From a virus: a DNA stretch of 43,690 bases. Position numbers and translations under genes: made by a program. This document shows, piece after piece, positions 1-39,465 of this stretch; position 1 is the first letter of the stretch; every line of letters starts with the position of its first letter. The stretch is taken from positions 1 through 43,690 of IMG/VR virus record IMGVR_UViG_3300028830_000013; one strand, given 5' to 3'. The notes beneath the pieces are model-generated. The model was given only the letters and a program-made list of their open reading frames with translations. It searched no databases and was not told the DNA's origin.

Positions 1-141
1 CGGGAAATCCCGAGCGTTGTCGTTTTCAGAGCCCATTCCGGGCGGCTTTACACGTGGCAAACCCCGCAAACCCACGTTCTACAGGGAACCATACCGCCTG
101 CAAAGCCGTGTACGCCGGTTCGATTCCGACCCCCGCCTCCA
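1..141 (+). repeat. attL copy of a 141-bp perfect direct repeat carrying a tRNA/tmRNA-like 3' end
   Basis: Bases 1-141 are identical to 43550-43690. The repeat ends GCCGGTTCGATTCCGACCCCCGCCTCCA (T-loop-like GGTTCGATTCC, terminal CCA). The integrase start lies 138 bp further on. Confidence 0.85.
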
Positions 142-278
142 ATATAATCACCGACTTACGGCAACAAGCAGGCCACGGAAACGTGGCAGATCGCGGCGGT
201 TAATGGGCATAAACCACTCGGGCGAGTGGCAGAACCACGCGGTCATCTTGCGCGTTTGCCGTGGACGGGAGTCGCGGC

Positions 279-1409
279 ATGGCAACCAAGCGCGTGCGCA
301 ATGGCACGTGGCATTTCACGGTTCGGCGAAAAGGGCTGCTGCCGAAGCCGATCTATCTCAGTTTCGCCACCGAAGAGGAAGGCGACCGCTACTGCAAGCA
401 CCTGGAATCGCTGCTCGATCACGGCATCGTGCCGCGCGAGTTCGCCGAGAATCGCGGCAAGCCCAAGACCATCGCAAAGGCGATCGTCGAATACACCGAC
501 GCGGAGCACATATCGAAGCAGGATGCGCCAGTGCTCGAGTTATTGCGCGAGCGTGTGGGCAAGATCGAATTGACCGCCCTCACGTACGCATGGTGCTCTG
601 AATGGGTTTCCAGCATGAAGCGAAAGGATCATCTGGCGCCATCAACCATCCGGCACTACGTCGGCGCGCTGGCCCGATGCATCGATTGGTGTTGCCGGCA
701 CGAGTACATGCCCGGCAATCCACTGCGCGCGCTACCCAAGCGGTACGCCACCTACAACGAGAAGGACGCCTCATTCCTCCCGGAGGAAGCGGAAGTGCCA
801 GATGACGAGCCGAACGACCGGCGCCTCGAGCCCGGCGAGCACGAGCGCATCTTGCGCGTTCTGAAGACCGATTACGTGCCCGACGGGAAGCAACGCGGCC
901 TTGCCCTGGAACACCGCGAGGCGCTGACGCTGATGTATTGGTGGGCGATCCGCGCAGGCATGCGGCTCAGTGAGATGTACACACTGACGACGGATCAGGT
1001 GGATGCCGCGCGGCGCACAATCTTCCTCGATAGGACCAAGAACGGCAGCAAGCGCCAGGTGCCGATGTTTCCCGAGGCCGTAGCCGCGTGGGAGTCGTAC
1101 AGTTTGCCAAATGGTGCAAGTCGGGTGGAGTCGGAAAACTTCGTGTTCCCGTGGTGGTCCGGTGGTGACGAGGCCGAGCGGCGGCGCGTGACATCGTTAT
1201 TGTCACGGCAGTGGGCGCGAATCTTCGCCCAGGCAGGGTGCGCCGGGTTGACGTTCCATGCTCTGCGACACGAGGCGACGTGCTGGGTCTACCTGAACAC
1301 GCAGCTATCGGATGTGCAGATCGCCAAGATGATGGGCTGGAAGTCGCTGAAAATGGCGTTGCGCTACGCGAATCTCAGGGGCTCGGATCTGGCGATGCTG
1401 GCAGGGTAG
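279..1409 (+). CDS. int: Tyrosine recombinase / phage integrase
   Basis: The track ORF is 261..1409. ATG 279 is preceded by GGGAG. C-terminal catalytic-type motifs are AGMRLSEMYTL, HALRHEATCW and LRYANL. The gene is adjacent to attL. Confidence 0.9.
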   Translation: MATKRVRNGTWHFTVRRKGLLPKPIYLSFATEEEGDRYCKHLESLLDHGIVPREFAENRGKPKTIAKAIVEYTDAEHISKQDAPVLELLRERVGKIELTALTYAWCSEWVSSMKRKDHLAPSTIRHYVGALARCIDWCCRHEYMPGNPLRALPKRYATYNEKDASFLPEEAEVPDDEPNDRRLEPGEHERILRVLKTDYVPDGKQRGLALEHREALTLMYWWAIRAGMRLSEMYTLTTDQVDAARRTIFLDRTKNGSKRQVPMFPEAVAAWESYSLPNGASRVESENFVFPWWSGGDEAERRRVTSLLSRQWARIFAQAGCAGLTFHALRHEATCWVYLNTQLSDVQIAKMMGWKSLKMALRYANLRGSDLAMLAG

Positions 1410-3379: not shown

Positions 3380-3519
3380 CTCAACCCCCGGTGCCCAACC
3401 CTGCGGTCGTGCGGTAGCGCCCGGTGTGTTCGCCGTTCGGCCCTGCAATTTCCATCGGTTGTATCCACCACATTTCGTTTCTCCTGTCCTACCGGTCTTC
3501 ATGGGTAGCCGGTAGGAAT

Positions 3520-3828
3520 TCATGGGTTTCCCACGGATCTCGACGCCCTCGGCATCGGCAGCAGCTTCGGCGGCTCTCGACGCCGGGTACCCCGCCCCTC
3601 GCGCGCTGCAATGACGGGCTCGCCGCGCTTGGCCTCTTTGCGCCGCGATTGCGTTTGCGCATCGGTCTGCTCGTGGATGTATGCGTCGATGTCGGCTTGG
3701 GTGAACCGCCAGCGCCCGAGCTTGACGGCGCGGATCTTCCCCGCACGCGCCTGATCGAGCAGCCAGTCGACAGAGACGCTCAGCCGCTCGGCGGCTTTCT
3801 TGGCGGTGAGTAGGCAGGGATCTGTCAC
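3520..3828 (-). CDS. Excisionase-family HTH DNA-binding protein
   Basis: LLTAKKAAERLSVSVDWLLDQARAGKIRAVKLGRWRFTQADIDAYI resembles the MerR-superfamily excisionase (HTH_17-type) fold. Confidence 0.6.
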   Translation of the reverse strand: MTDPCLLTAKKAAERLSVSVDWLLDQARAGKIRAVKLGRWRFTQADIDAYIHEQTDAQTQSRRKEAKRGEPVIAAREGRGTRRREPPKLLPMPRASRSVGNP

Positions 3829-3829
3829 G

Positions 3830-4276
3830 CTATCTACCCTTCTTTAGAACGCCCAAGGCGTTGACACCCATGCCGGTGCCAACATCCAGTCGGCTGGCAA
3901 TCTTGACGGCGGCAACAGCGTCGGCGCCGGCTGCCATGGCGCCTAGGGCGTAGTCGCAACCCGTGCCGATCGCCCACTTGCGCGCATGCACTTGCTCGTA
4001 GCCATGCGTCTTGTCGGTGTAAAGCCAGATACGACGATCATCGTCGATGAGCATCACCGATAGATCGACAAACGTGGGGCGCTCCGCAATCTCACCACGT
4101 ATCCACTGCAGGTAGGCGCGCGCATCGGCCGCGAGTCCCGCCGTGCCTACGATGTAGCGCCGGCCGTCTGGCGCAGAGACGCGGTGCACCTTTGGCCCGG
4201 TTCTGACCGGCGTATTGCCGTAGGTGCACTGCCGGTCGCCGGCAAGGGTGAGGCCATCGAATGCGATTGTCGTGAT
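3830..4276 (-). CDS. HslV / proteasome-beta-like Ntn hydrolase, apparent non-canonical ATC start
   Basis: The frame is open upstream of the track start (GTG 4189) and encodes I-TTIAFDGLTLAGDRQCTYGNT...KVHRV...GTAGLAADA...AIGTGCDYALGA. This parallels HslV (M-TTIVSV..AGDGQATLGNT..KVRRL..GFAGGTADA..AIGSGGPYA). GGAGG lies 6 nt before ATC 4276-4274. Confidence 0.6.
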   Translation of the reverse strand: MTTIAFDGLTLAGDRQCTYGNTPVRTGPKVHRVSAPDGRRYIVGTAGLAADARAYLQWIRGEIAERPTFVDLSVMLIDDDRRIWLYTDKTHGYEQVHARKWAIGTGCDYALGAMAAGADAVAAVKIASRLDVGTGMGVNALGVLKKGR

Positions 4277-4348
4277 AGGCCGCCTCCGTTTAGATGTGTG
4301 TCCAACCCTGTCTCATGCGGATGGAGCGTGCCCAGCGAATCGCTACCG

Positions 4349-5137
4349 TCATGGCGCGATCCTGCGGAAACAGATGACAAAGACCCATGGATTCGCGTCC
4401 CACGAGCCCTTGCCGTTGATCGATTCCCATAGGCTTGCGTAGGAGTTGCACGCGAACTCCCATGCCGCGCTGTCGTCGTTCGGGAAGAAGTAGTGACGCC
4501 AGCGGCTACCGACCGGCTCGATTCCTTCGGCAACCGCATCGCGCCCGCTGATGTCGTTCAGCCGTTCGACCCTGATCTCGTCGATCTCGAGCAGGATGCG
4601 CGAGGCCCATCGCGGCATGAACATGCCCGGGCGCAGCCGGCCCGCCCAGTTAGGCATCGAGGTCGGATAGTCATCGTCATTGACGTACTGGCCGCTGTCG
4701 TCGTGCGCGCGCGAGCCTCCCGCGGCATACATCACGGTGAGGCCGCGCTCGTGCGGTAGATTGGCAGGCGCTGTCAGGTCGTGTGCCCTGGAAACGCGCC
4801 ACGCCTCGCGCACCCATAGTTTGTCGCCGGGCTCGCCGTATGGGCAGGCGATGCGTTCGCCCGTATGCGTATGCCAGATGCAGCTCTGCTCAGGAATCGT
4901 GTCGCCCGCGTTGGTTCGCCCGCCGTTGGGGCCACCGATAGGCATCGGCTCCCACGTGCCGAGCGGGTTGCCGTGTGGCACCTTCACCTCTCGCCGCGTC
5001 TGCGTCTTGGTGCCGGCGAGTAGGGCGCAAACCATCGGCGCGCTGAACAGGATCGGACGCTCCCGCACACACCGGCATGCCTCGCCTCTGGTGCACGTGT
5101 CCTGCTCGCGGCACAGTGACTTGGCGCAGGCGATCAT
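4349..5137 (-). CDS. ASCH-like domain phage protein with Cys-rich N-terminus
   Basis: ILFSAPMVCALLAGTKTQTRR followed by YGEPGDKLWVREAW is the signature I associate with ASCH-fold phage proteins. Confidence 0.55.
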   Translation of the reverse strand: MIACAKSLCREQDTCTRGEACRCVRERPILFSAPMVCALLAGTKTQTRREVKVPHGNPLGTWEPMPIGGPNGGRTNAGDTIPEQSCIWHTHTGERIACPYGEPGDKLWVREAWRVSRAHDLTAPANLPHERGLTVMYAAGGSRAHDDSGQYVNDDDYPTSMPNWAGRLRPGMFMPRWASRILLEIDEIRVERLNDISGRDAVAEGIEPVGSRWRHYFFPNDDSAAWEFACNSYASLWESINGKGSWDANPWVFVICFRRIAP

Positions 5138-5295
5138 GGCTGGGGCTCCGGATACCCGTCATGGACGACCCCGGATGGAATGACAACCCGTCGAGAAAAC
5201 GTATGGATTAGGTTGATGGAAGCGCTAATCGCGATCTTGTGTTCCAACTCGCGCCGCCGGGCTTCGCGGTCGATTTTGTCGCGGGGGGTGGTCAT
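5134..5295 (-). CDS. Small ORF (53 aa) not in the supplied track
   Basis: MTTPRDKIDREARRRELEHKIAIS... It has ATGA stop/start overlaps with both flanking genes (5292-5295 and 5134-5137), which indicates translational coupling. Confidence 0.4.
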   Translation of the reverse strand: MTTPRDKIDREARRRELEHKIAISASINLIHTFSRRVVIPSGVVHDGYPEPQP

Positions 5296-5753
5296 GCCAC
5301 CTCCCTCGGTGCCGGCAGCAGTTTCGCGTCGGTCGCGTGCTCGAGCACGGTCTTTCCGCTCGGCAGCAGCAATTGCCCGAGGAACGCGCCCTCGAACGAC
5401 AGCACGCCGGTCTCGATCGCGGTGATCTGCCCCTTTATCCAGTCGCGCAGGATCGAGTAGACGGCGATGCTTGCAATGTCCATTGCCTTGCGCTCGTGCT
5501 GGGCCTTCGTCATGCGCTGACGCGGCCCGATCGGATGGGCCTTGAGCCAGGCCATCGCGTAGCCCTTGGTGGAGGCTTTCACGCTGACCGGACGGCCGCG
5601 ATATTCGAATTGCACAAGCAGTTCGCCCGCCTCGTCGTCGATCATGCTGCCGAACTTGGAGCAGCCGAACGCGCGCAAGAGCTTCTGCATGTCGCCGAGC
5701 GCGCGTTCGCCGCTGGTGGCGGATTCGTAGGGTAGAGTCATATGGCGCGTCAT
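5292..5753 (-). CDS. Hypothetical protein (153 aa)
   Basis: ORF tightly packed in the recombination module, 3 nt after the upstream stop. No recognised domain. Confidence 0.6.
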   Translation of the reverse strand: MTRHMTLPYESATSGERALGDMQKLLRAFGCSKFGSMIDDEAGELLVQFEYRGRPVSVKASTKGYAMAWLKAHPIGPRQRMTKAQHERKAMDIASIAVYSILRDWIKGQITAIETGVLSFEGAFLGQLLLPSGKTVLEHATDAKLLPAPREVA

Positions 5754-9158: not shown

Positions 9159-9466
9159 GCCGCCCCTCCCGTTTCCGCCACCCAGCCGGTGGCGTCGGTA
9201 TGTTCGTAGACGTCTGCGATGCTGCTGTCGGCCAGTTTGGTGCCTTCGATGACGCGCAGATCGGCGCGACGACGCGCACTGCGCCAGATGGCGTCGCGCA
9301 CGCGCTGCTCGGCGGTTTTGTCGGCCGGTGGTAGTTCGGCAAGGGCTGCGGCGAGTTCGGTGATGCGATCGTGCTCGGGGTCGGGTGCGAGCCCGCAGGA
9401 GGCCCGAACGGCGATGTAGACCTGCGCTTCGTGCAGCAGGGCGATGAGTTCGGGTGCGGATTTCAT
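9155..9466 (-). CDS. Hypothetical protein (103 aa)
   Basis: Track ORF with ATGA overlaps to both the upstream and downstream genes. Confidence 0.55.
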   Translation of the reverse strand: MKSAPELIALLHEAQVYIAVRASCGLAPDPEHDRITELAAALAELPPADKTAEQRVRDAIWRSARRRADLRVIEGTKLADSSIADVYEHTDATGWVAETGGAA

Positions 9467-10248
9467 TGGGGCGCCTCGACAAACTCACCGCTCGCGTCGA
9501 GCGAATACCAAACCATCGGCTTGAGTCCGTTGTCTCCGATTTTGCTCGCACGGATGTGCACGATTGCTCCTTTGTCATCGCGATGCGTCAGCACGATGGC
9601 GCTCCCGAGTGGGGCGCGTGCCGTGCTGTCGCTGCCTAGCGCGATTGCCACGGCATACAGGAGCGCGCCATCCTCGGCGGGCAGGATCTGACTGGTTGAG
9701 TTATCCCCGGTCGTCAGGCTGGCCGAGCTGTCGCCCGTGGCACTGCTGGCCGAGCTGTCGCCCGTGGCACTGCTGGCCGATCTGTCGCCCGTGGCACTGC
9801 TGGCCGAGCTGTCGCCCGTGGCACTGCTGGCCGAGCTGTAGCCCGTGGCACTGCTGGCCGAGCTGTCGCCCGTGTCGTGAGCATCTTTTGCCGGCTCGCA
9901 CCGGGATTTGACAAACTCAAACGCCGCGGTGATCAACGCGGGGATGCCGATTTCGGCTTTAATCGCGATGCGGCTGCTGGCAATCTTCGTATCTTCGTCG
10001 TGGCGACTGAGCGCACCAGACTGCTCGACTACAGCGAACCTATTTCCGACCGGGCTGTAGTAGCTAAACACATCGAGCGGATGTTCGCAGGCGTGGAAGC
10101 CATTTCTGCAAGCCTCGACCGCCCCTGTGTGTTCATACGACTGGCCGACTGCGTACTGAAAACCGCGGCATTTCCAGTTGGCATCAAAACCTTTGTAGGC
10201 CGTGACGACCTCAGCGGCTGCCTCTTCTTGCTGCACTTGTTTGTCCAT
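9463..10248 (-). CDS. Phage protein with a conserved Cys/His N-domain and 9-aa tandem repeats (I recall the family as DUF7666-like; the name is uncertain)
   Basis: The start is at MDKQVQ (ATG 10248). The N-domain is YKGFDANWKCRGFQYAVGQSYEHTG..CRNGFHACEHPLDVFSYY, followed by roughly 5.5 SATGDSSAS-type repeats. The track ORF extends falsely through the tRNA. Confidence 0.7.
   Translation of the reverse strand: MDKQVQQEEAAAEVVTAYKGFDANWKCRGFQYAVGQSYEHTGAVEACRNGFHACEHPLDVFSYYSPVGNRFAVVEQSGALSRHDEDTKIASSRIAIKAEIGIPALITAAFEFVKSRCEPAKDAHDTGDSSASSATGYSSASSATGDSSASSATGDRSASSATGDSSASSATGDSSASLTTGDNSTSQILPAEDGALLYAVAIALGSDSTARAPLGSAIVLTHRDDKGAIVHIRASKIGDNGLKPMVWYSLDASGEFVEAPQ
9718..9875. repeat. 27-bp tandem repeat, about 5.5 units, in frame inside the CDS
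   Basis: The unit GCTGGCCGAGCTGTCGCCCGTGGCACT starts at 9718, 9745, 9772, 9799 and 9826, with a partial unit at 9853. Units differ by single-base changes. Confidence 0.9.
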
Positions 10249-10266
10249 GCGTCCCCCGTGCGTTTC

Positions 10267-10341
10267 TGGTTGCAGGGGCAGGATTCGAACCTGCGACCTG
10301 CGGGTTATGAGCCCGCCGCGCTGCCGCTGCGCCACCCTGCT
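10267..10341 (-). tRNA. tRNA-Met (anticodon CAU) with bacterial initiator (fMet) signatures
   Basis: The minus-strand sequence is AGCAGGG TG GCGC AGCGGCA GCGC G GCGGG CTCATAA CCCGC AGGTC GCAGG TTCGAAT CCTGC CCCTGCA A CCA, which folds as a cloverleaf by hand. It has GGG/CCC at the bottom of the anticodon stem, unpaired 1:72 (A x A), G2:C71, C3:G70, A73 and an encoded CCA. Confidence 0.85.
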
Positions 10342-10429
10342 GCTGTCGTTACCCACCGGTCCCTGATCCGTCCGCCTCGGTCCTGTCGCGGAGCGGGTGC
10401 CGAGGGGCGGGGGGAGAGGTGATGGGGTA

Positions 10430-10458
10430 AGTATCAGATAACTGATAGTCCGTGTCAA
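10430..10458 (-). promoter_or_regulatory. PL-like early leftward promoter
   Basis: On the minus strand: TTGACA (10458-10453), a 17-nt spacer, then GATACT (10435-10430). Two operator sites overlap it, in the same geometry as PR. Confidence 0.7.
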
Positions 10459-10470
10459 CAGAATCCTGAT
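10432..10470. promoter_or_regulatory. OL-like operators (2 sites, ATCAG-N4-CTGAT family)
   Basis: TATCAGATAACTGATA (10432-10447) and AACAGAATCCTGAT (10457-10470). Their centres are 24 bp apart, and the half-sites match the three sites between the repressor and cro. Confidence 0.7.
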
Positions 10471-10480
10471 TAATTCAGGC

Positions 10481-10506
10481 AAAATAAAACCCGCACGGGG
10501 CGGATT
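10481..10506 (-). terminator. Intrinsic terminator ending the repressor operon (tIMM-like)
   Basis: On the minus strand: AATCCGC-CCCGT-GCGGGTT followed by TTTTATTTT. It lies after the last cassette gene and just before OL/PL. Confidence 0.6.
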
Positions 10507-33291: not shown

Positions 33292-36200
33292 ATGAACGAA
33301 ATCGATACCGGCGCTGCCGTTGATTCCTGGTTGAACGAACGCATTGACCCGGCATTCGGTGCGCGCATCAACTACGCCTTGTCGCTGGACGCGAAGCCCG
33401 ATTACGAGGCCGATTTGCGTCGCGCGGCCGAGAAAACCGGCGTGCCGCTGGACTCGGCGCGCAGTTTCCCGGACGACGTGAAGAAGCAAGCGCAGATCGA
33501 GGCGATAGACTGGCAGTCGCTCGCGCAGGAATTCCCGCATACCGCGCGCTACCTCAACAACCTGGACAATGCGCGTCTGTCGCACGACGACATCGGCAAT
33601 CTGACTGAGATAGAACGGGGCGTGCTCGGCATGGTGACAGAGCCGATCGCGCGAGGGCTTGCGTCCGGCAAGCGTGGCATCTCGCTGGCGATCAGCAACA
33701 TGGGCTTGCTCCGAGGGCTGGATGAACAGCGGCAAGCCGCAGCGGCAGCGCACGGGCTTCGCTACGATCCGGGCATCGATTCTGCGATTCTGCTCGCGCA
33801 GCAGCAGCGCGGGGTCGAGCGCTATCCGGTCCCGCCGGCCATCGCTGAAGGCATGCAGAAGATTGGTCAGGCCAAAGGCATGGTGGAAGCCCTTGGCGCA
33901 ATATTTGAGCATCCTTCTGCCGTTGCAGAGACAGCGCTGCAATCCATGGGGTCAAGCGCTCCGGCGCTGGTTGGCGCGGTCGCCGGGTCGTCGATGGGAC
34001 CGGTTGGCACAGGGGCGGGCGCGGGAGCCGGCAGTTTCGCTGTCGAGTATGGCAACACCTTGCAGGAGGTGATGGCCGATCACGGTGTCGATTCGAGCGA
34101 CCCCTATGCGATCTATGCCGCGCTGAACAATCCGCGCCTGATGGCGATTGCGCGCGACAAGGCGGGCAAGCGCGCGGTATCGGTGGCGACGTTCGACGCG
34201 CTGACGGCAGGGCTTGCAGGGCGCATCCTCGCAGCGGCGCGGCCTGGCGCGATGGGCGTGACGAAGGCGGTCGGCGGTGAACTTGGGCTGCAGGCCGGCG
34301 GTGGCGCCGCTGGCGAAGCGGTCGCGCAGCTCGGTACCGATGAGTACAAGCCGGGCGACATCCTGATGGAAGCGATCGCGGAGATCCCGTCTGGTGTCGT
34401 GGAAGTACCGGCGAACGTGCGCCATGCGATCGAGAACGGCCAATGGAACCAGCGGCGGGCAGAGATTGCCCATCAGGACGCACAAGCCATCGCCGCGCTA
34501 TCCCAGATTGCCGCCGCCTCCAAGGTGCGCCAGCGCGATGCGGCGACGTTCGAGGCGTTCGTCAAGGGCGTGACCGAGGATGGCCCGGTCGAAAATCTGT
34601 ACATCGACGCCAATGCGCTGATGCAGTCGGGTGTGGCCGAGCAGGTCGCGCAAGCCTCGCCGGCCGTGGCCGAGCAGCTTGAGATGGCGGCAGCCACGGG
34701 CGGGCAGATCCGCATCCCGCTGGCAGAATACGCTGCCACGCTGGCCGGGCAGTTCGATGCGCAGCTGATCCCGAACCTCAAGACCGACCCGCAGGGCTTC
34801 AGTCAGGCCGAAGCGGTCGAGTACATGCAGACGCAGGGCGAAACGCTGCGGCAGGAATTCCAGCGCGTGCTGGCCGAGCAGCAGGACGACGCGACATTCA
34901 AGGCCTCGGCCGAGACGGTCAAGGCCGGCGTGCTTGGGCAACTGGACGCAACCGGCCGGTTCACCGGCGAGGTGCGCGACGCCTATGCCTCGTTCGTGTC
35001 GAACTATTACGCCGTCACGGCCGCGAAGCTCGGCACGACACCGGACGCGCTGTTCGCGCAGTATCCGCTGCGGGTCGTGGCGGAGGGCGTTGAGTGGGCG
35101 CAATTCGAGCAGGCGGCGAATACAGCCACACAGCAGGCCATGGAGAAATGGAAGGCGTCACTGTCGAACGTCTCGCAGCAGCGTTTGAACTACGCTCCGG
35201 CGCTTGAAACACCGACAGTCCTGCGCTCGATGGGGGTGAAGGAATCGAAGCTCTCGTTTCCGACGCGCATCATCCAGGAAAACCATCTGCGGCATCCGGA
35301 CGTGCCGATGTCTGTCTATGAGAACCTGCCGGCGCTGCTGGCTGACCCCTTGTTCATCTACACGCACAAGGACGGCGGGCTGCGGGCGATCATCGACGCA
35401 ACGACGGAGAACGGAGAACCCATCGCTGTCGGTATAGGGCAGCGCATCCAGACGATAACGCCGATCCACGACAGCGATACCGAGACCGGAGTGCAGCGCG
35501 TTCATGCCGCAGTTGCGCGTGCGGCTCAGCAACCTGGCACAAAGGTCTACGCCAGAAACGAAGAAGCCCTCGTAAAGACGAGGGCTTCGGTTGGGGCGCC
35601 TTCTGGCACGATTCCATTACGGCGGGATTCCCACAACAGAGCCACTATATTCACCCGCCAGCATCTTGTCAAACGGCTCGGGGATGACTTCTACCAGGGC
35701 GGTGGCGCCCGCGGCTCTTTCAGCCCGTCGACCAACACCATCGCGCTGCTGAAGAACGCCGACCTCTCGACATTCCTGCACGAAACCGGGCATTTCTTCC
35801 TCGAAATGACCGCCGACCTCGCGGACCGGACCGACGCGCCGGCTGCGCTGCGGCAGGACATGCAGACCCTGCTCGACTGGTTCGGCGTCAAGGATCTCGC
35901 CGAGTGGTCCGCGCTGTCGATGGACGAGAAGCGCGCCTACCACGAGAAATGGGCCGAAGGGTTCGAGAAATACCTGTTCGAGGGCAAGGCGCCGTCGCTC
36001 GAAATGCAGGGACTGTTCCAGCGCTTCCGCGCGTGGATGCTCAACGTCTACAAGTCGCTCAAGGCGATGCGCGTCGAACTGACCGACGAAGTGCGCGGCG
36101 TGATGGACCGCATGCTGGCGACGACCGAGCAGATCCAGTCCGCCGAGATGGCGCGCTCGATGCTGCCGCTGTTCCAGACGCCCGAGCAGGCCGGCATGAC

Positions 36201-39200
36201 GCCGGAGGAATTCAAGGCGTACCACGACCAGGCGCTGCAGGCCACGCAGGATGCCATCGAGGAACTGCAAAGCCGCGGGCTGCGCGACATGCAGTGGCTG
36301 GCGGGGGCGAAGTCGCGCGAGTTGCGGCGGCTGCAGGCCGGGGCGAAGAACCTGCGCGCCGAGGTGCGCCGGGAGGTGGCGGCCGAGGTTGGCGCCCAGC
36401 CGGTCTATCGAGCTATGCGCTTCCTTCGCTACGGCGAGTTGGAGATTCCGCCGGATTCCAACCGCACACAGCGACGCATCGCCCAGGAGGCAAACCTCAG
36501 CGGTACCAAGCTCTCCCTGCCCGCGCTCAAAAAAATGTACGGAGAAGAAGGCAACGCGATCTGGCGCAACCTCTCTACCGGCAAGACGGGGCTTGCCGCA
36601 ACCGAAGGCATGCACCCTGACATGGTGGCGGAGCTATTCGGCTTCACCTCGGGGGATCACCTGGTGCGCGAGCTGCTCGCCGCCGACCCGATGAAGGATG
36701 TCGTCGAGGCCATCACCGACCAACACATGCTGGAACGCCATGGTGACCTTGCCACACCGCAGGCACTGGAACGCGCGGCCGATGCCGCGATCCACAATGC
36801 GGCCCGTGCCCGCTTCGTGACGACCGAATACAACGCGCTCGCGCAGGCCACGGGACAGCCCAGGATCATTGCCGAAGCGGCGCGGCAACTCGCCGGCGAC
36901 ATGATCGCGCGCCAGCGCTTGCGCGACCTGAGGTCCGGGCAATATACCGGGGCCGAGGCGAAGGCTGCCCGTGCGGCGCAGAAGGCCATGAATGCCGGCG
37001 ACCTTGCCGGCGCGGCCGCACAGCAGCGCAACCGGGTGCTGAACCTGAATCTGGCCCGCGCGGTGCATCAGGCGCAGAACGAGGAGCAGGTCGGCGTGCG
37101 CTACCTGCGGAAGTTCGGCAAGGCGTCCGTGCGCAGGAACATCGACGCCGACTATACCGACCAGATCGATGCGCTGCTGGAACGCTACGACCTCGGCACA
37201 CTCAGCAACAAGGCGGCGGACAAGCGCGCCCGGCTGGCCGACTGGATCGAGTCGCAGAAGAAGCAGGGCATCGAGCCCGACCTGCCGGCGCATCTGCTGG
37301 ATGAAGCGCAGCGCAAGCCGTACCGGGATATGACGGTCGAGGAGTTTCGCGGGCTGGTGGCAGCCGTGAAGAAGATTGAACACCTCGGCCGGCTGAAGAA
37401 CCGCCTGCTGACGGCCCGCGATCAGCAGAACTACGAGGCGGCGCGTGACGAGATCGTGGCCAGCATCATCGAACATGCTGGGGACCGCAAAGCAGACACC
37501 CGAGAACCCGTCACGGCGATGGGGCGGTCCACGAAGGGGCTGCGCCAGTTCTTTGCCTCGCACCTGCGCGCCTCGTCGATCGCGCGCATTCTCGATGGCG
37601 GCAGGGATGGCGGGCCGGTGTGGGAATACCTGATCCGCCCGGCGAACGATCGCGCAGACATGGAAACCGTGATGCGCCAGCAGGCCACGGAACAACTGAC
37701 GGCAATCCTGAAGCCGGTCCTCGCACTCGGCAAGATGGAAGGCAAGGGAACGTTCTTTCCGTCGCTGAAGACCAGCCTGAACCGCGAACAGCGCATTGCC
37801 ATCGCGCTGAACACGGGCAACGTCGGCAATATGCAGAGGCTGTTAGACGGCGAGGGGTGGTCACGCGAGCAGATCGCGCCGGTTCTGCAAAGCCTGAGCG
37901 TCGAGGAGTGGCGCGCGGTGCAGGCGATATGGGACCACTTCGAGCAGTACCGTCCGCTGATCGCGGAAAAGGAACGGCGCGTTTATGGCGTCGAGCCAGA
38001 GTGGGTGCAGCCGGTTCCGTTTGTGGCGCTCGCTGCGGATGGTTCGCAGGTTGCTATGCGCGGCGGTTACTACCCGGTCAAGTACGACCCGAATGCGTCG
38101 ATGCGTGCCGAGGAGCACGCCGACGCCGAGGACGCCAAGGCTATGATGCAGGCCGGATACACGTCCGCCACGACGCGGCGCAGTTTCACCAAGGCACGTG
38201 TCGAGGAGGTCAAGGGGCGCCCGCTGCTCTACTCGCTGGCCGGGCTGTATTCCGGGGTCAATGAGGTCATCCACGACTTGAGTTGGCACGAGTTCCTGAT
38301 CGATGCCAACAAGCTGATGCGATCCGACTCGATCGACGAAGCAATCCGAGAAGCCTATGGGCCAGAGTGGAAGGAGCAGTTCAAAACCTGGCTGCGCGAC
38401 GTGGCGCAGGGCGACCGGCAAATCCTGCACCCGATGGAGCGCGCGGTTGGCCGCTTGCGTCATGGCGTGTCCATTGCAGGGCTGGGCTTCAACGTCATGT
38501 CGGCAGCCATCCAGCCGCTTGGTTTCACGCAATCAATCGTCAGGATCGGCCCAAAATACGCCGCGCAGGGGTTGGGCCGCCTGTTCGCCAACCCGCTGCA
38601 ACTGTCGCGCGACATCAACGCGAAGTCCATATTCATGGAAGAGCGGGCGCGTACCCGATTCCGCGAGTTGAACGAGTTGCGCAACCAGGTGCAGGGCAAG
38701 ACGACCGCCATGCAGCAGATGGAACGTTACGCCTACAGCATGATGCTGACCATGCAGCGCGCGGTGGACCTGCCGACATGGTGGGGCGCCTACGAAAAGG
38801 CGCAGGCGGAAGGCAACGACGAAGCACGATCCGTCGCCCTGGCGGATCAGGCCGTGAAGGATTCGCAGGGGTCGGGCATGACGATGGACCTGTCCGCCAT
38901 CGAGCGCGGCGGGCCGTTCGTCAAGCTGTTTACGACCTTCTACACCTTCATGGGGTCCGCCTTCAATCTCGGCGTGACGCAGACCATGGCGGCCGACACG
39001 GCGGCAAAACGGGCAAAGCTTACCTCCGATTACCTGCTGATCTATGTCCTGCCGCCCGCCATGGGACTGGCGCTCAAGGCCGCATTGACTCCTGGCGATT
39101 CAGGCGACGACGATCCGGAGAAGCTGGCGAAAAAGCTGGCGGCAGAGCAGGTGAGTTTCCTGATGGGCATGATGGTCGGACTGCGCGAGTTCTCCAACGT

Positions 39201-39465
39201 CTCGAGTGTGATCACTGGCAAGCCGAACGACTACGCCGGACCGGCAGGGCTGCGTGCGGTGTCGGATTCGATCAAGCTATCGCAGCAGACGGCGCAAGGC
39301 GAGTTCGATACCGCTTTCCGCAAGGCATTTGTCAACACGGCCGGCGACTTCTTCGGTCTGCCGTCTGCCCAACTCAATCGCTCGATCACCGGCATCGAAG
39401 CGCTCAGTGAGGGCAAGACCGACAACCCGGCTGCTGTCATTTTTGGTTATCAGGAACCCCGCTGA
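33292..39465 (+). CDS. Giant (2057 aa) polyvalent virion / ejection protein with a zincin-like HExxH module
   Basis: One uninterrupted ORF. It has an N-terminal Gly/Ala-rich hydrophobic region and a block containing FLHETGHFFLE...YHEKWAEGFEKYLFEG that resembles polyvalent-protein metallopeptidase modules. All antisense ORFs across it are shadows. Confidence 0.75.
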   Translation: MNEIDTGAAVDSWLNERIDPAFGARINYALSLDAKPDYEADLRRAAEKTGVPLDSARSFPDDVKKQAQIEAIDWQSLAQEFPHTARYLNNLDNARLSHDDIGNLTEIERGVLGMVTEPIARGLASGKRGISLAISNMGLLRGLDEQRQAAAAAHGLRYDPGIDSAILLAQQQRGVERYPVPPAIAEGMQKIGQAKGMVEALGAIFEHPSAVAETALQSMGSSAPALVGAVAGSSMGPVGTGAGAGAGSFAVEYGNTLQEVMADHGVDSSDPYAIYAALNNPRLMAIARDKAGKRAVSVATFDALTAGLAGRILAAARPGAMGVTKAVGGELGLQAGGGAAGEAVAQLGTDEYKPGDILMEAIAEIPSGVVEVPANVRHAIENGQWNQRRAEIAHQDAQAIAALSQIAAASKVRQRDAATFEAFVKGVTEDGPVENLYIDANALMQSGVAEQVAQASPAVAEQLEMAAATGGQIRIPLAEYAATLAGQFDAQLIPNLKTDPQGFSQAEAVEYMQTQGETLRQEFQRVLAEQQDDATFKASAETVKAGVLGQLDATGRFTGEVRDAYASFVSNYYAVTAAKLGTTPDALFAQYPLRVVAEGVEWAQFEQAANTATQQAMEKWKASLSNVSQQRLNYAPALETPTVLRSMGVKESKLSFPTRIIQENHLRHPDVPMSVYENLPALLADPLFIYTHKDGGLRAIIDATTENGEPIAVGIGQRIQTITPIHDSDTETGVQRVHAAVARAAQQPGTKVYARNEEALVKTRASVGAPSGTIPLRRDSHNRATIFTRQHLVKRLGDDFYQGGGARGSFSPSTNTIALLKNADLSTFLHETGHFFLEMTADLADRTDAPAALRQDMQTLLDWFGVKDLAEWSALSMDEKRAYHEKWAEGFEKYLFEGKAPSLEMQGLFQRFRAWMLNVYKSLKAMRVELTDEVRGVMDRMLATTEQIQSAEMARSMLPLFQTPEQAGMTPEEFKAYHDQALQATQDAIEELQSRGLRDMQWLAGAKSRELRRLQAGAKNLRAEVRREVAAEVGAQPVYRAMRFLRYGELEIPPDSNRTQRRIAQEANLSGTKLSLPALKKMYGEEGNAIWRNLSTGKTGLAATEGMHPDMVAELFGFTSGDHLVRELLAADPMKDVVEAITDQHMLERHGDLATPQALERAADAAIHNAARARFVTTEYNALAQATGQPRIIAEAARQLAGDMIARQRLRDLRSGQYTGAEAKAARAAQKAMNAGDLAGAAAQQRNRVLNLNLARAVHQAQNEEQVGVRYLRKFGKASVRRNIDADYTDQIDALLERYDLGTLSNKAADKRARLADWIESQKKQGIEPDLPAHLLDEAQRKPYRDMTVEEFRGLVAAVKKIEHLGRLKNRLLTARDQQNYEAARDEIVASIIEHAGDRKADTREPVTAMGRSTKGLRQFFASHLRASSIARILDGGRDGGPVWEYLIRPANDRADMETVMRQQATEQLTAILKPVLALGKMEGKGTFFPSLKTSLNREQRIAIALNTGNVGNMQRLLDGEGWSREQIAPVLQSLSVEEWRAVQAIWDHFEQYRPLIAEKERRVYGVEPEWVQPVPFVALAADGSQVAMRGGYYPVKYDPNASMRAEEHADAEDAKAMMQAGYTSATTRRSFTKARVEEVKGRPLLYSLAGLYSGVNEVIHDLSWHEFLIDANKLMRSDSIDEAIREAYGPEWKEQFKTWLRDVAQGDRQILHPMERAVGRLRHGVSIAGLGFNVMSAAIQPLGFTQSIVRIGPKYAAQGLGRLFANPLQLSRDINAKSIFMEERARTRFRELNELRNQVQGKTTAMQQMERYAYSMMLTMQRAVDLPTWWGAYEKAQAEGNDEARSVALADQAVKDSQGSGMTMDLSAIERGGPFVKLFTTFYTFMGSAFNLGVTQTMAADTAAKRAKLTSDYLLIYVLPPAMGLALKAALTPGDSGDDDPEKLAKKLAAEQVSFLMGMMVGLREFSNVSSVITGKPNDYAGPAGLRAVSDSIKLSQQTAQGEFDTAFRKAFVNTAGDFFGLPSAQLNRSITGIEALSEGKTDNPAAVIFGYQEPR

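Follow-up and report, generated by a model that had tools for sequence, protein, structure and literature searches.

An ATC codon in the start position of a phage proteasome-like hydrolase gene, and the case for weak near-cognate initiation

How could a threonine protease be made when the codon ahead of its catalytic residue is not a conventional start? The question is raised by a minus-strand gene in IMG/VR virus record IMGVR_UViG_3300028830_000013, which we analyzed over positions 1 to 43,690 (the window hereafter, 43,690 nt), a temperate phage sequence of 62.5% GC. The gene encodes a proteasome-like N-terminal nucleophile (Ntn) hydrolase of the type described as PPH, and it carries ATC where its relatives carry ATG, GTG or TTG. 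On the evidence of sequence comparison, we favor weak initiation at AUC, which would yield the full-length protease with its Thr1 exposed, and we give this reading a probability of roughly 0.6.

The frame is open on the minus strand from a TGA at 4315-4313 to a TAG at 3832-3830, and between these stops it reads DRVGHTSKRRRP-ITTIAFDGLTLAGDRQCTYGNTPVRTGPK-VHRV...KKGR. Its first in-frame ATG, GTG or TTG after the TGA is the GTG at 4189; the 12 codons from TGA to ATC contain none of the three and no other near-cognate codon either (CTG, ACG or ATH, where H is A, C or T). Because that interval holds no canonical start codon, the list of open reading frames (ORFs) begins the gene at GTG 4189 and returns a product of 119 aa (P0002). 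Ahead of this call, GGAGG at 4287-4283 is followed by the 6-nt spacer CGGCCT, then by ATC at 4276-4274 and then by the threonine codons ACG and ACA. An earlier note on this DNA, made from the letters alone, had described the open frame, its want of ATG, GTG and TTG and the GGAGG 6 nt before ATC, with coordinates that proved exact. The predicted duplex with the anti-Shine-Dalgarno sequence reaches -9.5 kcal/mol at the ATC site, 11th among 75 family members (top 15%), as against -2.5 kcal/mol before GTG 4189, which amounts to no Shine-Dalgarno (SD) sequence there. The ATC is not an assembly error, because the same sequence is found in contigs of at least three JGI samples: those of 3300028902 and 3300024274 are 100% identical to the window, and that of 3300028841, whose 9779 nt show 2 mismatches, yields an identical 119-aa call and therefore keeps the same start region.

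With the 29-codon extension upstream of GTG 4189, the product scores 26.6 bits against the Pfam Proteasome family (PF00227), compared with 18.8 bits without it (cut-off 22.4), and it matches PHROG 1040, 'peptidase HslV family', at 1.7e-29. An AlphaFold2 model built with 26 homologues (predicted local distance difference score 93.4, predicted template-modeling score 0.88) had HslV (6kui, 1m4y, 1g3i), 20S beta subunits and BPH, the beta-proteobacteria proteasome homologue, as its top Foldseek matches in the PDB, all at probability 1.00. A sequence profile compared with solved structures placed BPH nearest (2.6e-7), followed by HslV (6e-5). Residues 1-29 form four core beta-strands in the model and carry T2, D14 and K29; by DSSP, strands 40-47 and 72-77 enclose a single helix (49-59), and helices 107-115 and 120-130 and a final strand 138-142 come after them. 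Across the 26-sequence alignment G47 never varies and T2, D14, K29 and G44 scarcely do, and in the pairwise alignment with HslV D14 corresponds to Asp17, K29 to the equivalent of Lys33 and G44 to Gly45. In Ntn hydrolases such as HslV, it is the threonine following the initiator methionine that becomes the Thr1 nucleophile.

We are confident from this modeling that the product of 3830-4276 adopts the proteasome fold of an Ntn hydrolase, and from the fold and catalytic residues we infer a self-compartmentalizing threonine protease like HslV or BPH, which would assemble into rings and have a proteolytic role. The earlier note had likewise proposed an HslV-like Ntn hydrolase whose frame aligns with the HslV N-terminus, catalytic threonine included, and had named the lack of any Ntn-hydrolase or HslV signal in profile searches as grounds for abandoning the idea; the signal is present, and D14 and K29 align with Asp17 and the Lys33 equivalent of HslV, T2 being nearly invariant among the homologues.

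The ATC occupies the position of the start codon. In the 26-sequence alignment, the isoleucine of the window falls exactly on the initiator column, where the other sequences begin M-, V- or L-TT, and about 250 distinct PPH-like ORFs have their start codon at the codon aligned to ATC. We also recovered loci through the C-terminal motif GxDYALGAM, a criterion independent of the N-terminus; the aligned codon in the 75 distinct genes so obtained is ATG in 54, GTG in 14, TTG in 3, ATC in 2 and ATA in 2, and all of their ORFs are intact (139-185 codons). The closest relative (P0001, locus L003; 82% identity) has ATG at the equivalent codon and reads GCGGCC-ATGACT where the window reads GCGGCCTATCACG (in shorter form, GCGGCC-ATGAC against GCGGCCTATCAC). 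The GGAGG of the window is a stronger SD than the homologous GGGTG of this ATG-bearing locus. Between the two genes, the ratio of non-synonymous to synonymous substitution rates (dN/dS) is 0.10 over codons 2-29 (10 synonymous and 4 non-synonymous changes) and 0.083 over the rest of the gene, with dS at about 0.7-1.2, and third-position GC in the 29 upstream codons (22/29 by hand count) is typical of coding sequence in the window. Such constraint on codons 2-29 excludes long-term non-translation and fits a recent change equally well. No homologue was found to start at the equivalent of GTG 4189. The two comparisons by which the earlier note proposed to judge its idea, whether relatives carry ATG at this codon and whether they start instead at the equivalent of 4189, thus both came out in its favor.

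ATH start codons recur across the family. They occur in 3 lineages among the 75 genes of the C-terminal-motif sample, namely the window, L004/L063 (ATC with GGAG 6 nt upstream) and L075/L077 (ATA behind AGGAG). Scanning IMG/VR for ATH before TT[IV]A[WFYC]DG gave 20 matches, of which 7 are full-length PPH-like genes (ATC in L173, L177 and L182; ATA in L174 and L185; ATT in L176 and L186); an eighth such gene (L184, ATT) lies at a contig edge, and one further representative reads MEWRTT-I-TTIAFDG. All ATH ORFs not cut by a contig end are intact, at 137-152 codons. Among the sequences gathered, the nearest relative of each ATH gene has a canonical start (35-83% identity), and the ATH state therefore has at least 10-11 independent origins. 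Its frequency in IMG/VR, where each scan gave at least 120 canonical matches, has an upper bound only, of less than about 4%.

This recurrence is confined to particular codons. As a control, the same pattern after AAG, ACG or AGG gave 31 matches and after CTG gave 6, with 0 PPH-like genes among them. Were the seven non-canonical one-step neighbors of ATG equally likely, the chance that all are ATH would be 0.003 for 7 of 7 and 9e-5 for 11 of 11. Neutral decay of the start codon is disfavored, because the other four neighbors should then appear too. Genes with ATH also have the stronger ribosome-binding sites: the median anti-SD energy is -7.7 kcal/mol (n=10) versus -6.0 kcal/mol for canonical starts (n=235; Mann-Whitney p=0.008), and an SD core lies at 4-10 nt in 82% of ATH ORFs (11 ORFs, L077 included) versus 52% of canonical ones, the canonical figures being those among the matches listed. 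The recurrence is detectable because the Thr1 constraint fixes the start site. It goes unmentioned in the available part of the PPH description (PMC8665760) and in the start-codon literature searched; the new point is this recurrence, as the protease family and near-cognate initiation were both already known.

Under weak AUC initiation, the initiator fMet-tRNA would start at AUC 4276-4274 with its third-position mismatch tolerated, on ribosomes recruited by a strong and optimally spaced SD (GGAGG, 6 nt). Deformylase and methionine aminopeptidase, which permits threonine as the next residue, would then cut off the initiator methionine and expose Thr1, an established route to this nucleophile. 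The mature protein would be the same as from an AUG start, with N-terminal peptide TTIAFDGLTLAGDR and a free threonine at its N-terminus. Output would probably reach a few percent of that of an AUG gene, and low expression of a protease may benefit the phage. Because the Thr1 requirement pins the start to one codon, a change from ATG to ATH would not be rescued by a neighboring start, and ATH starts would therefore be both tolerated and visible in the PPH family. Initiation in E. coli from AUC, AUA, AUU and CUG runs at about 1-2% of the AUG level (range 0.02-3%), and the AUC product bears an N-terminal methionine by mass spectrometry (Hecht et al., bioRxiv 10.1101/063800). We also considered initiation at ACG 4273 and find it unlikely, since Thr1 would then lie one residue out of register with the conserved strand; ACG is not among the four stronger near-cognate codons listed in the same study, namely AUA, AUC, AUU and CUG.

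Several points weigh against weak AUC initiation as we describe it. The argument is comparative and leans on analogy with E. coli, from which the initiation efficiencies come, and the host here is another proteobacterium. The window lineage consists of near-identical copies only, so that selection after the change from ATG to ATC is not measurable. Two of the ATH genes, L173 and L185, are without a well-placed SD. Every ATH lineage is a singleton, with no diverged clade that keeps ATH among the sequences gathered, and the frequency of the state is loosely bounded (3 lineages in 75 genes; below about 4% in IMG/VR). The ATH state may be short-lived, either slightly harmful or the beginning of gene loss.

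The explanation that best survives alongside it is recent inactivation, possible in our view if on the unlikely side, in which a change from ATG to ATC together with remodeling of the junction would have silenced the gene and left the ORF intact only for want of time. It is in keeping with the ATG of the nearest relative, with the position of each ATH lineage as an isolated tip among canonical-start neighbors and with the near-identity of the window-lineage copies, which give no sign that ATC persists. The junction has indeed changed: in L003 the stop of the phrog_874 homologue overlaps the PPH ATG directly (ATGA), and compared with it the window has a 72-nt spacer and one extra T and no longer has ATGA overlapping the upstream gene. 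Prophages can often do without their accessory early genes, and disrupted family members do exist, as 3 of 121 pattern-matched IMG/VR ORFs among the matches listed end after 20-61 codons, P0233 is apparently frameshifted at its N-terminus and P0088 is missing about 33 internal residues in the H1 region. Yet loss through ATH can occur by only three single-base changes, whereas nonsense and frameshift changes can fall anywhere over about 440 nt, and ATH genes turn up, among the matches listed, about as often as the other visible disruptions combined. Inactivation also leaves unexplained why the other four one-step neighbors of ATG (AAG, ACG, AGG and CTG) were not found, why ATH members have above-average SDs, the window exceeding L003 in this respect, and why the catalytic and nearly invariant N-terminal residues are all intact. 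Inactivation and AUC initiation overlap in part, as some AUC initiation is expected either way; what is at issue is its relevance to the phage.

A bolder proposal is that ATH starts are a recurrent, selected feature of PPH genes, the change from ATG to ATH behind a strong SD serving, with the start site locked by Thr1, as an evolutionary dial that would lower a potentially harmful protease to a few percent of full output. We put this forward tentatively. If it were true, near-cognate initiation in uncultured phages could be read from PPH genes, which would serve as its natural reporter independently of annotation, and a few percent of the family would be systematically truncated or mis-extended by gene callers.

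Translational coupling, a variant of weak AUC initiation, appears doubtful. Here ribosomes leaving the upstream gene would restart at ATG 4352, translate a 20-codon upstream ORF (uORF), stop at TAA 4292-4290 and re-initiate 13 nt downstream, at ATC behind its SD. This geometry can be read straight from the sequence, and many family members (L003, L005, L166) are joined to their upstream gene by ATGA or GTGA overlaps. The uORF, however, is confined to the window lineage, so its conservation gives no support; the strong SD would permit independent initiation; re-initiation at non-canonical codons is an assumption; and the spacer region, folded over 4236-4365, has no significant RNA structure (z = 0.22). 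The uORF could be a coupling element or a remnant of the junction. We also examined the 72-nt spacer as a degenerate duplicate of the junction formed by the end of the upstream gene, ATGA and the PPH start, and rejected this, the local alignment against shuffled sequences not being significant (p ~0.14-0.19). At the amino-acid level, FRRIAP before a stop and SKRRRP-I both resemble the FNRVRP that precedes the stop in L003.

Very improbable, in our judgment, is a real product that is the 119-aa protein from GTG 4189, a non-catalytic fragment without Thr1 and with some other role. This GTG is the first canonical start and the choice of gene callers in every contig; it has no SD (-2.5 kcal/mol), and its product would be without the four core beta-strands and without T2 (Thr1), D14 (Asp17) and K29 (Lys33). 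The 29 upstream codons it discards are under purifying selection (dN/dS 0.10) with coding-like third-position GC (22/29), and no homologue starts at the equivalent codon. Short calls elsewhere in the family, P0003 from an NCBI metagenome-assembled genome (L005 1247-1678) and P0079 (L166 525-953), are N-truncated products of 110-119 aa without Thr1 and proved to be mis-calls: in each the genuine start, ATG or GTG, overlaps the stop of the gene before it (ATGA, GTGA), and we rejected them as extra non-canonical starts. Of the three readings that the earlier note had left side by side, AUC initiation is thus the best supported, inactivation stays as a rival and the Thr1-less product is disfavored.

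Scarcely credible is an artifact or recoding event, whether a sequencing or assembly error at ATC or read-through or frameshifting from the upstream ORF or the uORF: the upstream 262-aa ORF does share the frame of the PPH gene, but the same sequence appears in independent assemblies of at least three JGI samples, three in-frame stops lie between the ORFs (TGA 4351, TAG 4345 and TGA 4315), no slippery heptamer was seen in the sequence, an N-terminal extension ending in isoleucine at -1 would block Thr1, and PPH proteins are reported to be without propeptides in the available part of PMC8665760.

The gene that begins 1 nt past the PPH stop encodes an excisionase-like HTH_17 protein and therefore belongs to the same leftward early operon (Table 1). 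No promoter-like site was found in 3500-5400, and PADLOC returned 0 hits for defense-system membership of PPH or its neighbors.

Table 1. Coordinates of the PPH gene, its start region and neighboring features in the window
Feature	Position	Strand	Basis or remark
PPH-type proteasome-like Ntn hydrolase coding sequence	3830..4276	-	148 codons from ATC, plus TAG stop
ATC, proposed near-cognate initiation codon	4274..4276	-	Homologous to ATG/GTG/TTG of relatives
ACG, encoding the catalytic Thr (residue 1 after loss of the initiator Met)	4271..4273	-	T2 nearly invariant in 26-sequence alignment
Shine-Dalgarno GGAGG	4283..4287	-	6 nt 5' of ATC
In-frame TGA closing the frame upstream of ATC	4313..4315	-	Sequence
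GTG picked by ORF finders and gene callers (119-aa P0002)	4187..4189	-	Judged a mis-annotated start
20-codon uORF, MTVAIRWARSIRMRQGWTHI then stop	4290..4352	-	ATG overlaps TGA of upstream gene (ATGA); TAA ends 2 nt before SD
Upstream gene, 262 aa, phrog_874, hypothetical	4349..5137	-	PHROG match
HTH_17 (excisionase-like) gene	3520..3828	-	Begins 1 nt past PPH stop
Integrase	261-1409	+	Pfam/PHROGs scan
Leftward early operon		-	RecE-like exonuclease, RecT, three unassigned genes, phrog_874, PPH, HTH_17, Dam
RusA, large terminase, major head protein, tail proteins, SLT protein, GH108 endolysin			Further window genes

The prophage is integrated at a tRNA-Cys gene next to pgsA in a 170-kb metagenome contig, beside the host genes lepA-lepB-DUF4845-rnc-era-recO-pdxJ-acpS-nagZ-udg-uvrC-pgsA-tRNA-Gly, an order that we take to be proteobacterial. 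The host tRNA-Cys lies downstream of uvrC-pgsA-tRNA-Gly in contig Ga0310363_1140738, and its 3' 46 nt recur at window 96-141 as the attachment core; the regions compared were window 1-141 and L418 9652-9863. Window positions 1-95 have no match to the host flank, and for this reason the window may represent the excised or circular form (attP) or the other junction. Toward the other end, a 2057-aa ORF (33292-39465, plus strand) with an N-terminal LPD22 domain, a large polyvalent protein-associated domain, follows the SLT-domain protein in the tail or injection module.

The prophage also encodes a tRNA with anticodon CAU (10270-10341, minus strand), detected by ARAGORN and scoring 65 bits against the Rfam tRNA model. 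Its 1:72 bases are mismatched (A1 x A72), three G:C pairs adjoin its loop CUCAUAA, it has an encoded CCA and carries C:G rather than A:U at 11:24, and a promoter-like site, TTGACA-17-GATACT, lies just upstream on the strand of the PPH operon. It is presumably far closer to E. coli tRNA-fMet than to elongator tRNA-Met, and it looks like an initiator-type tRNA. A tRNA-fMet carried by a prophage is on record for the phiLM21-like prophages of S. meliloti (PMC12429752). That a phage initiator-type tRNA(CAU) modulates ATC initiation is speculative, and no tRNA was found within the available flanks of the other ATH-start loci. The tRNA gene is spanned by a 339-aa ORF (9463-10482, minus strand; phrog_4433, or DUF7666 in the contig annotation) that matches its PHROG only from residue 84 and is annotated as 261 aa in the contig, and for these reasons its true start is probably an ATG near 10247. 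Inside this gene, a 27-nt repeat (GCTGGCCGAGCTGTCGCCCGTGGCACT) runs in tandem and in frame over 9718-9874, with 5.8 copies at 96% identity.

In annotation terms, the 119-aa product as deposited is wrongly called and loses all three catalytic residues, and the same fault probably extends to as much as a few percent of the PPH family, which numbers 6155 cluster representatives at E<=1e-10. Starts that are none of AUG, GUG or UUG are hard to spot in bacteria, since a gene caller can usually find another start; Ntn hydrolases, in which the start is pinned to the codon before Thr1, let near-cognate starts be seen from sequence alone. The locus opens no new class of system and is a modest oddity whose annotation needs correction.

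Set against known systems, the product is a member of the PPH family, assigned by its described features, with the match to PHROG 1040 as an indirect stand-in for a comparison with the published representative WP_042125023.1. The available part of Fuchs et al. 2021 (PMC8665760) describes PPH proteins as about 140 aa long, encoded in Caudovirales and host prophage regions, without helix H2 or propeptides and with no partner ATPase reported; it reports no biochemical function for them. All four defining features that we tested are found here. The gene has 148 codons, among homologous complete ORFs of 139-185 and mostly 139-152 in the C-terminal-motif sample, in line with a compact protein of about 140 residues that has neither insertions nor a C-terminal S12/H5 extension; its product shares the proteasome-like beta-sandwich and the equivalents of Thr1, Asp17, Lys33 and Gly47; the model has one helix where HslV and the proteasome carry H1 and H2; and the gene sits in a tailed-phage or prophage early region without a partner ATPase, its homologues likewise lying on IMG/VR contigs. 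Where the window copy differs is in starting with ATC rather than ATG, GTG or TTG. The earlier note had held a stand-alone phage protease subunit to be unusual in itself, a view that does not stand: PPH is already described and is common, the 6155 representatives coming from a profile search of 1.84 billion cluster representatives.

Other members broaden this picture. P0025, at 252 aa, is extended at its C-terminus in the manner of the published 'RPC' relatives of PPH, and P0171 is called with a 111-residue N-terminal extension before its GTG-Thr start. Two IMG/VR contigs of 219 kb and 126 kb (L203 6342-6953 and L233 2061-2613) each have two N-terminal pattern matches about 530-590 nt apart on the same strand, which suggests tandem PPH paralogues; these might form hetero-oligomeric rings. 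Among deposited phages, no nucleotide similarity to the window was found, and the protein-level matches are only distant, to Erwinia jumbo phages ('peptidase HslV family') and Ralstonia phages. In the Erwinia phages of about 240 kb (MW384823.1, NC_031126.1 and related), a PPH-like homologue of 35-37% identity is the first gene of the record (bases 1-465), annotated 'peptidase HslV family' or 'putative ATP-dependent protease, HslV subunit'.

With HslV (ClpQ) the product has in common the fold (Foldseek template-modeling score ~0.7, query-normalized), the AGD...K...GxAG...GSGxxYA motifs and a Thr1 exposed by removal of the initiator methionine alone. It is not HslV proper, because it scores 19-20 bits against equivalog cut-offs of 137-158 (20.1 versus 137 for NF003964 and 18.9 versus 157.75 for TIGR03692, both NCBIfam). 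Identity to HslV is about 20%, and the window protein is about 30 residues shorter, without H2 and without an adjacent hslU. No AAA+ or HslU-type ATPase appeared among the 38 window proteins scanned with Pfam or PHROGs, a set that includes all ORFs above 300 aa and leaves out many small ones; to that extent the earlier note was right to find none. BPH (5ovs, 5ovt, 5ovu) is the best profile match among solved structures, with only the C-terminal half aligning significantly, and it resembles PPH in being a proteasome homologue that stands alone and has no ATPase dedicated to it, although at about 190-200 aa it is larger, is encoded on the chromosome instead of by a phage and keeps H2. Among the group I families of Fuchs et al. 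(PMC8665760), from which PPH radiates, BPH occupies the central node.

As for its start, the gene is best compared with the AUH-start genes infC and pcnB (AUU, E. coli) and ebpA (ATT, E. faecalis), in which AUH stands at the functional start behind an SD, the product begins with methionine and reduced output is expected. The AUU of infC is conserved and acts as an autoregulatory sensor of IF3. The ATH of PPH genes, unlike it, is unconserved among relatives and arises repeatedly, and conservation across diverged orthologues as in infC is not seen in a sampling that is sparse, with nearest neighbors mostly at 35-66% identity. A rare ATT start attenuates expression of E. faecalis ebpA, according to the available part of PMC4447247. 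The AUH starts of infC, pcnB and ebpA were verified by experiment, whereas in the window initiation at AUC is what the sequence leads us to infer. What the window shares with them is ATC in the place of the homologous start codon, where no canonical codon offers itself in frame instead, and an SD at functional spacing (GGAGG, 6 nt). With at least 10-11 ATH origins, 0 cases of ACG, AAG, AGG or CTG and stronger SDs, the PPH family provides comparative evidence of natural AUH initiation beyond infC, pcnB and ebpA.

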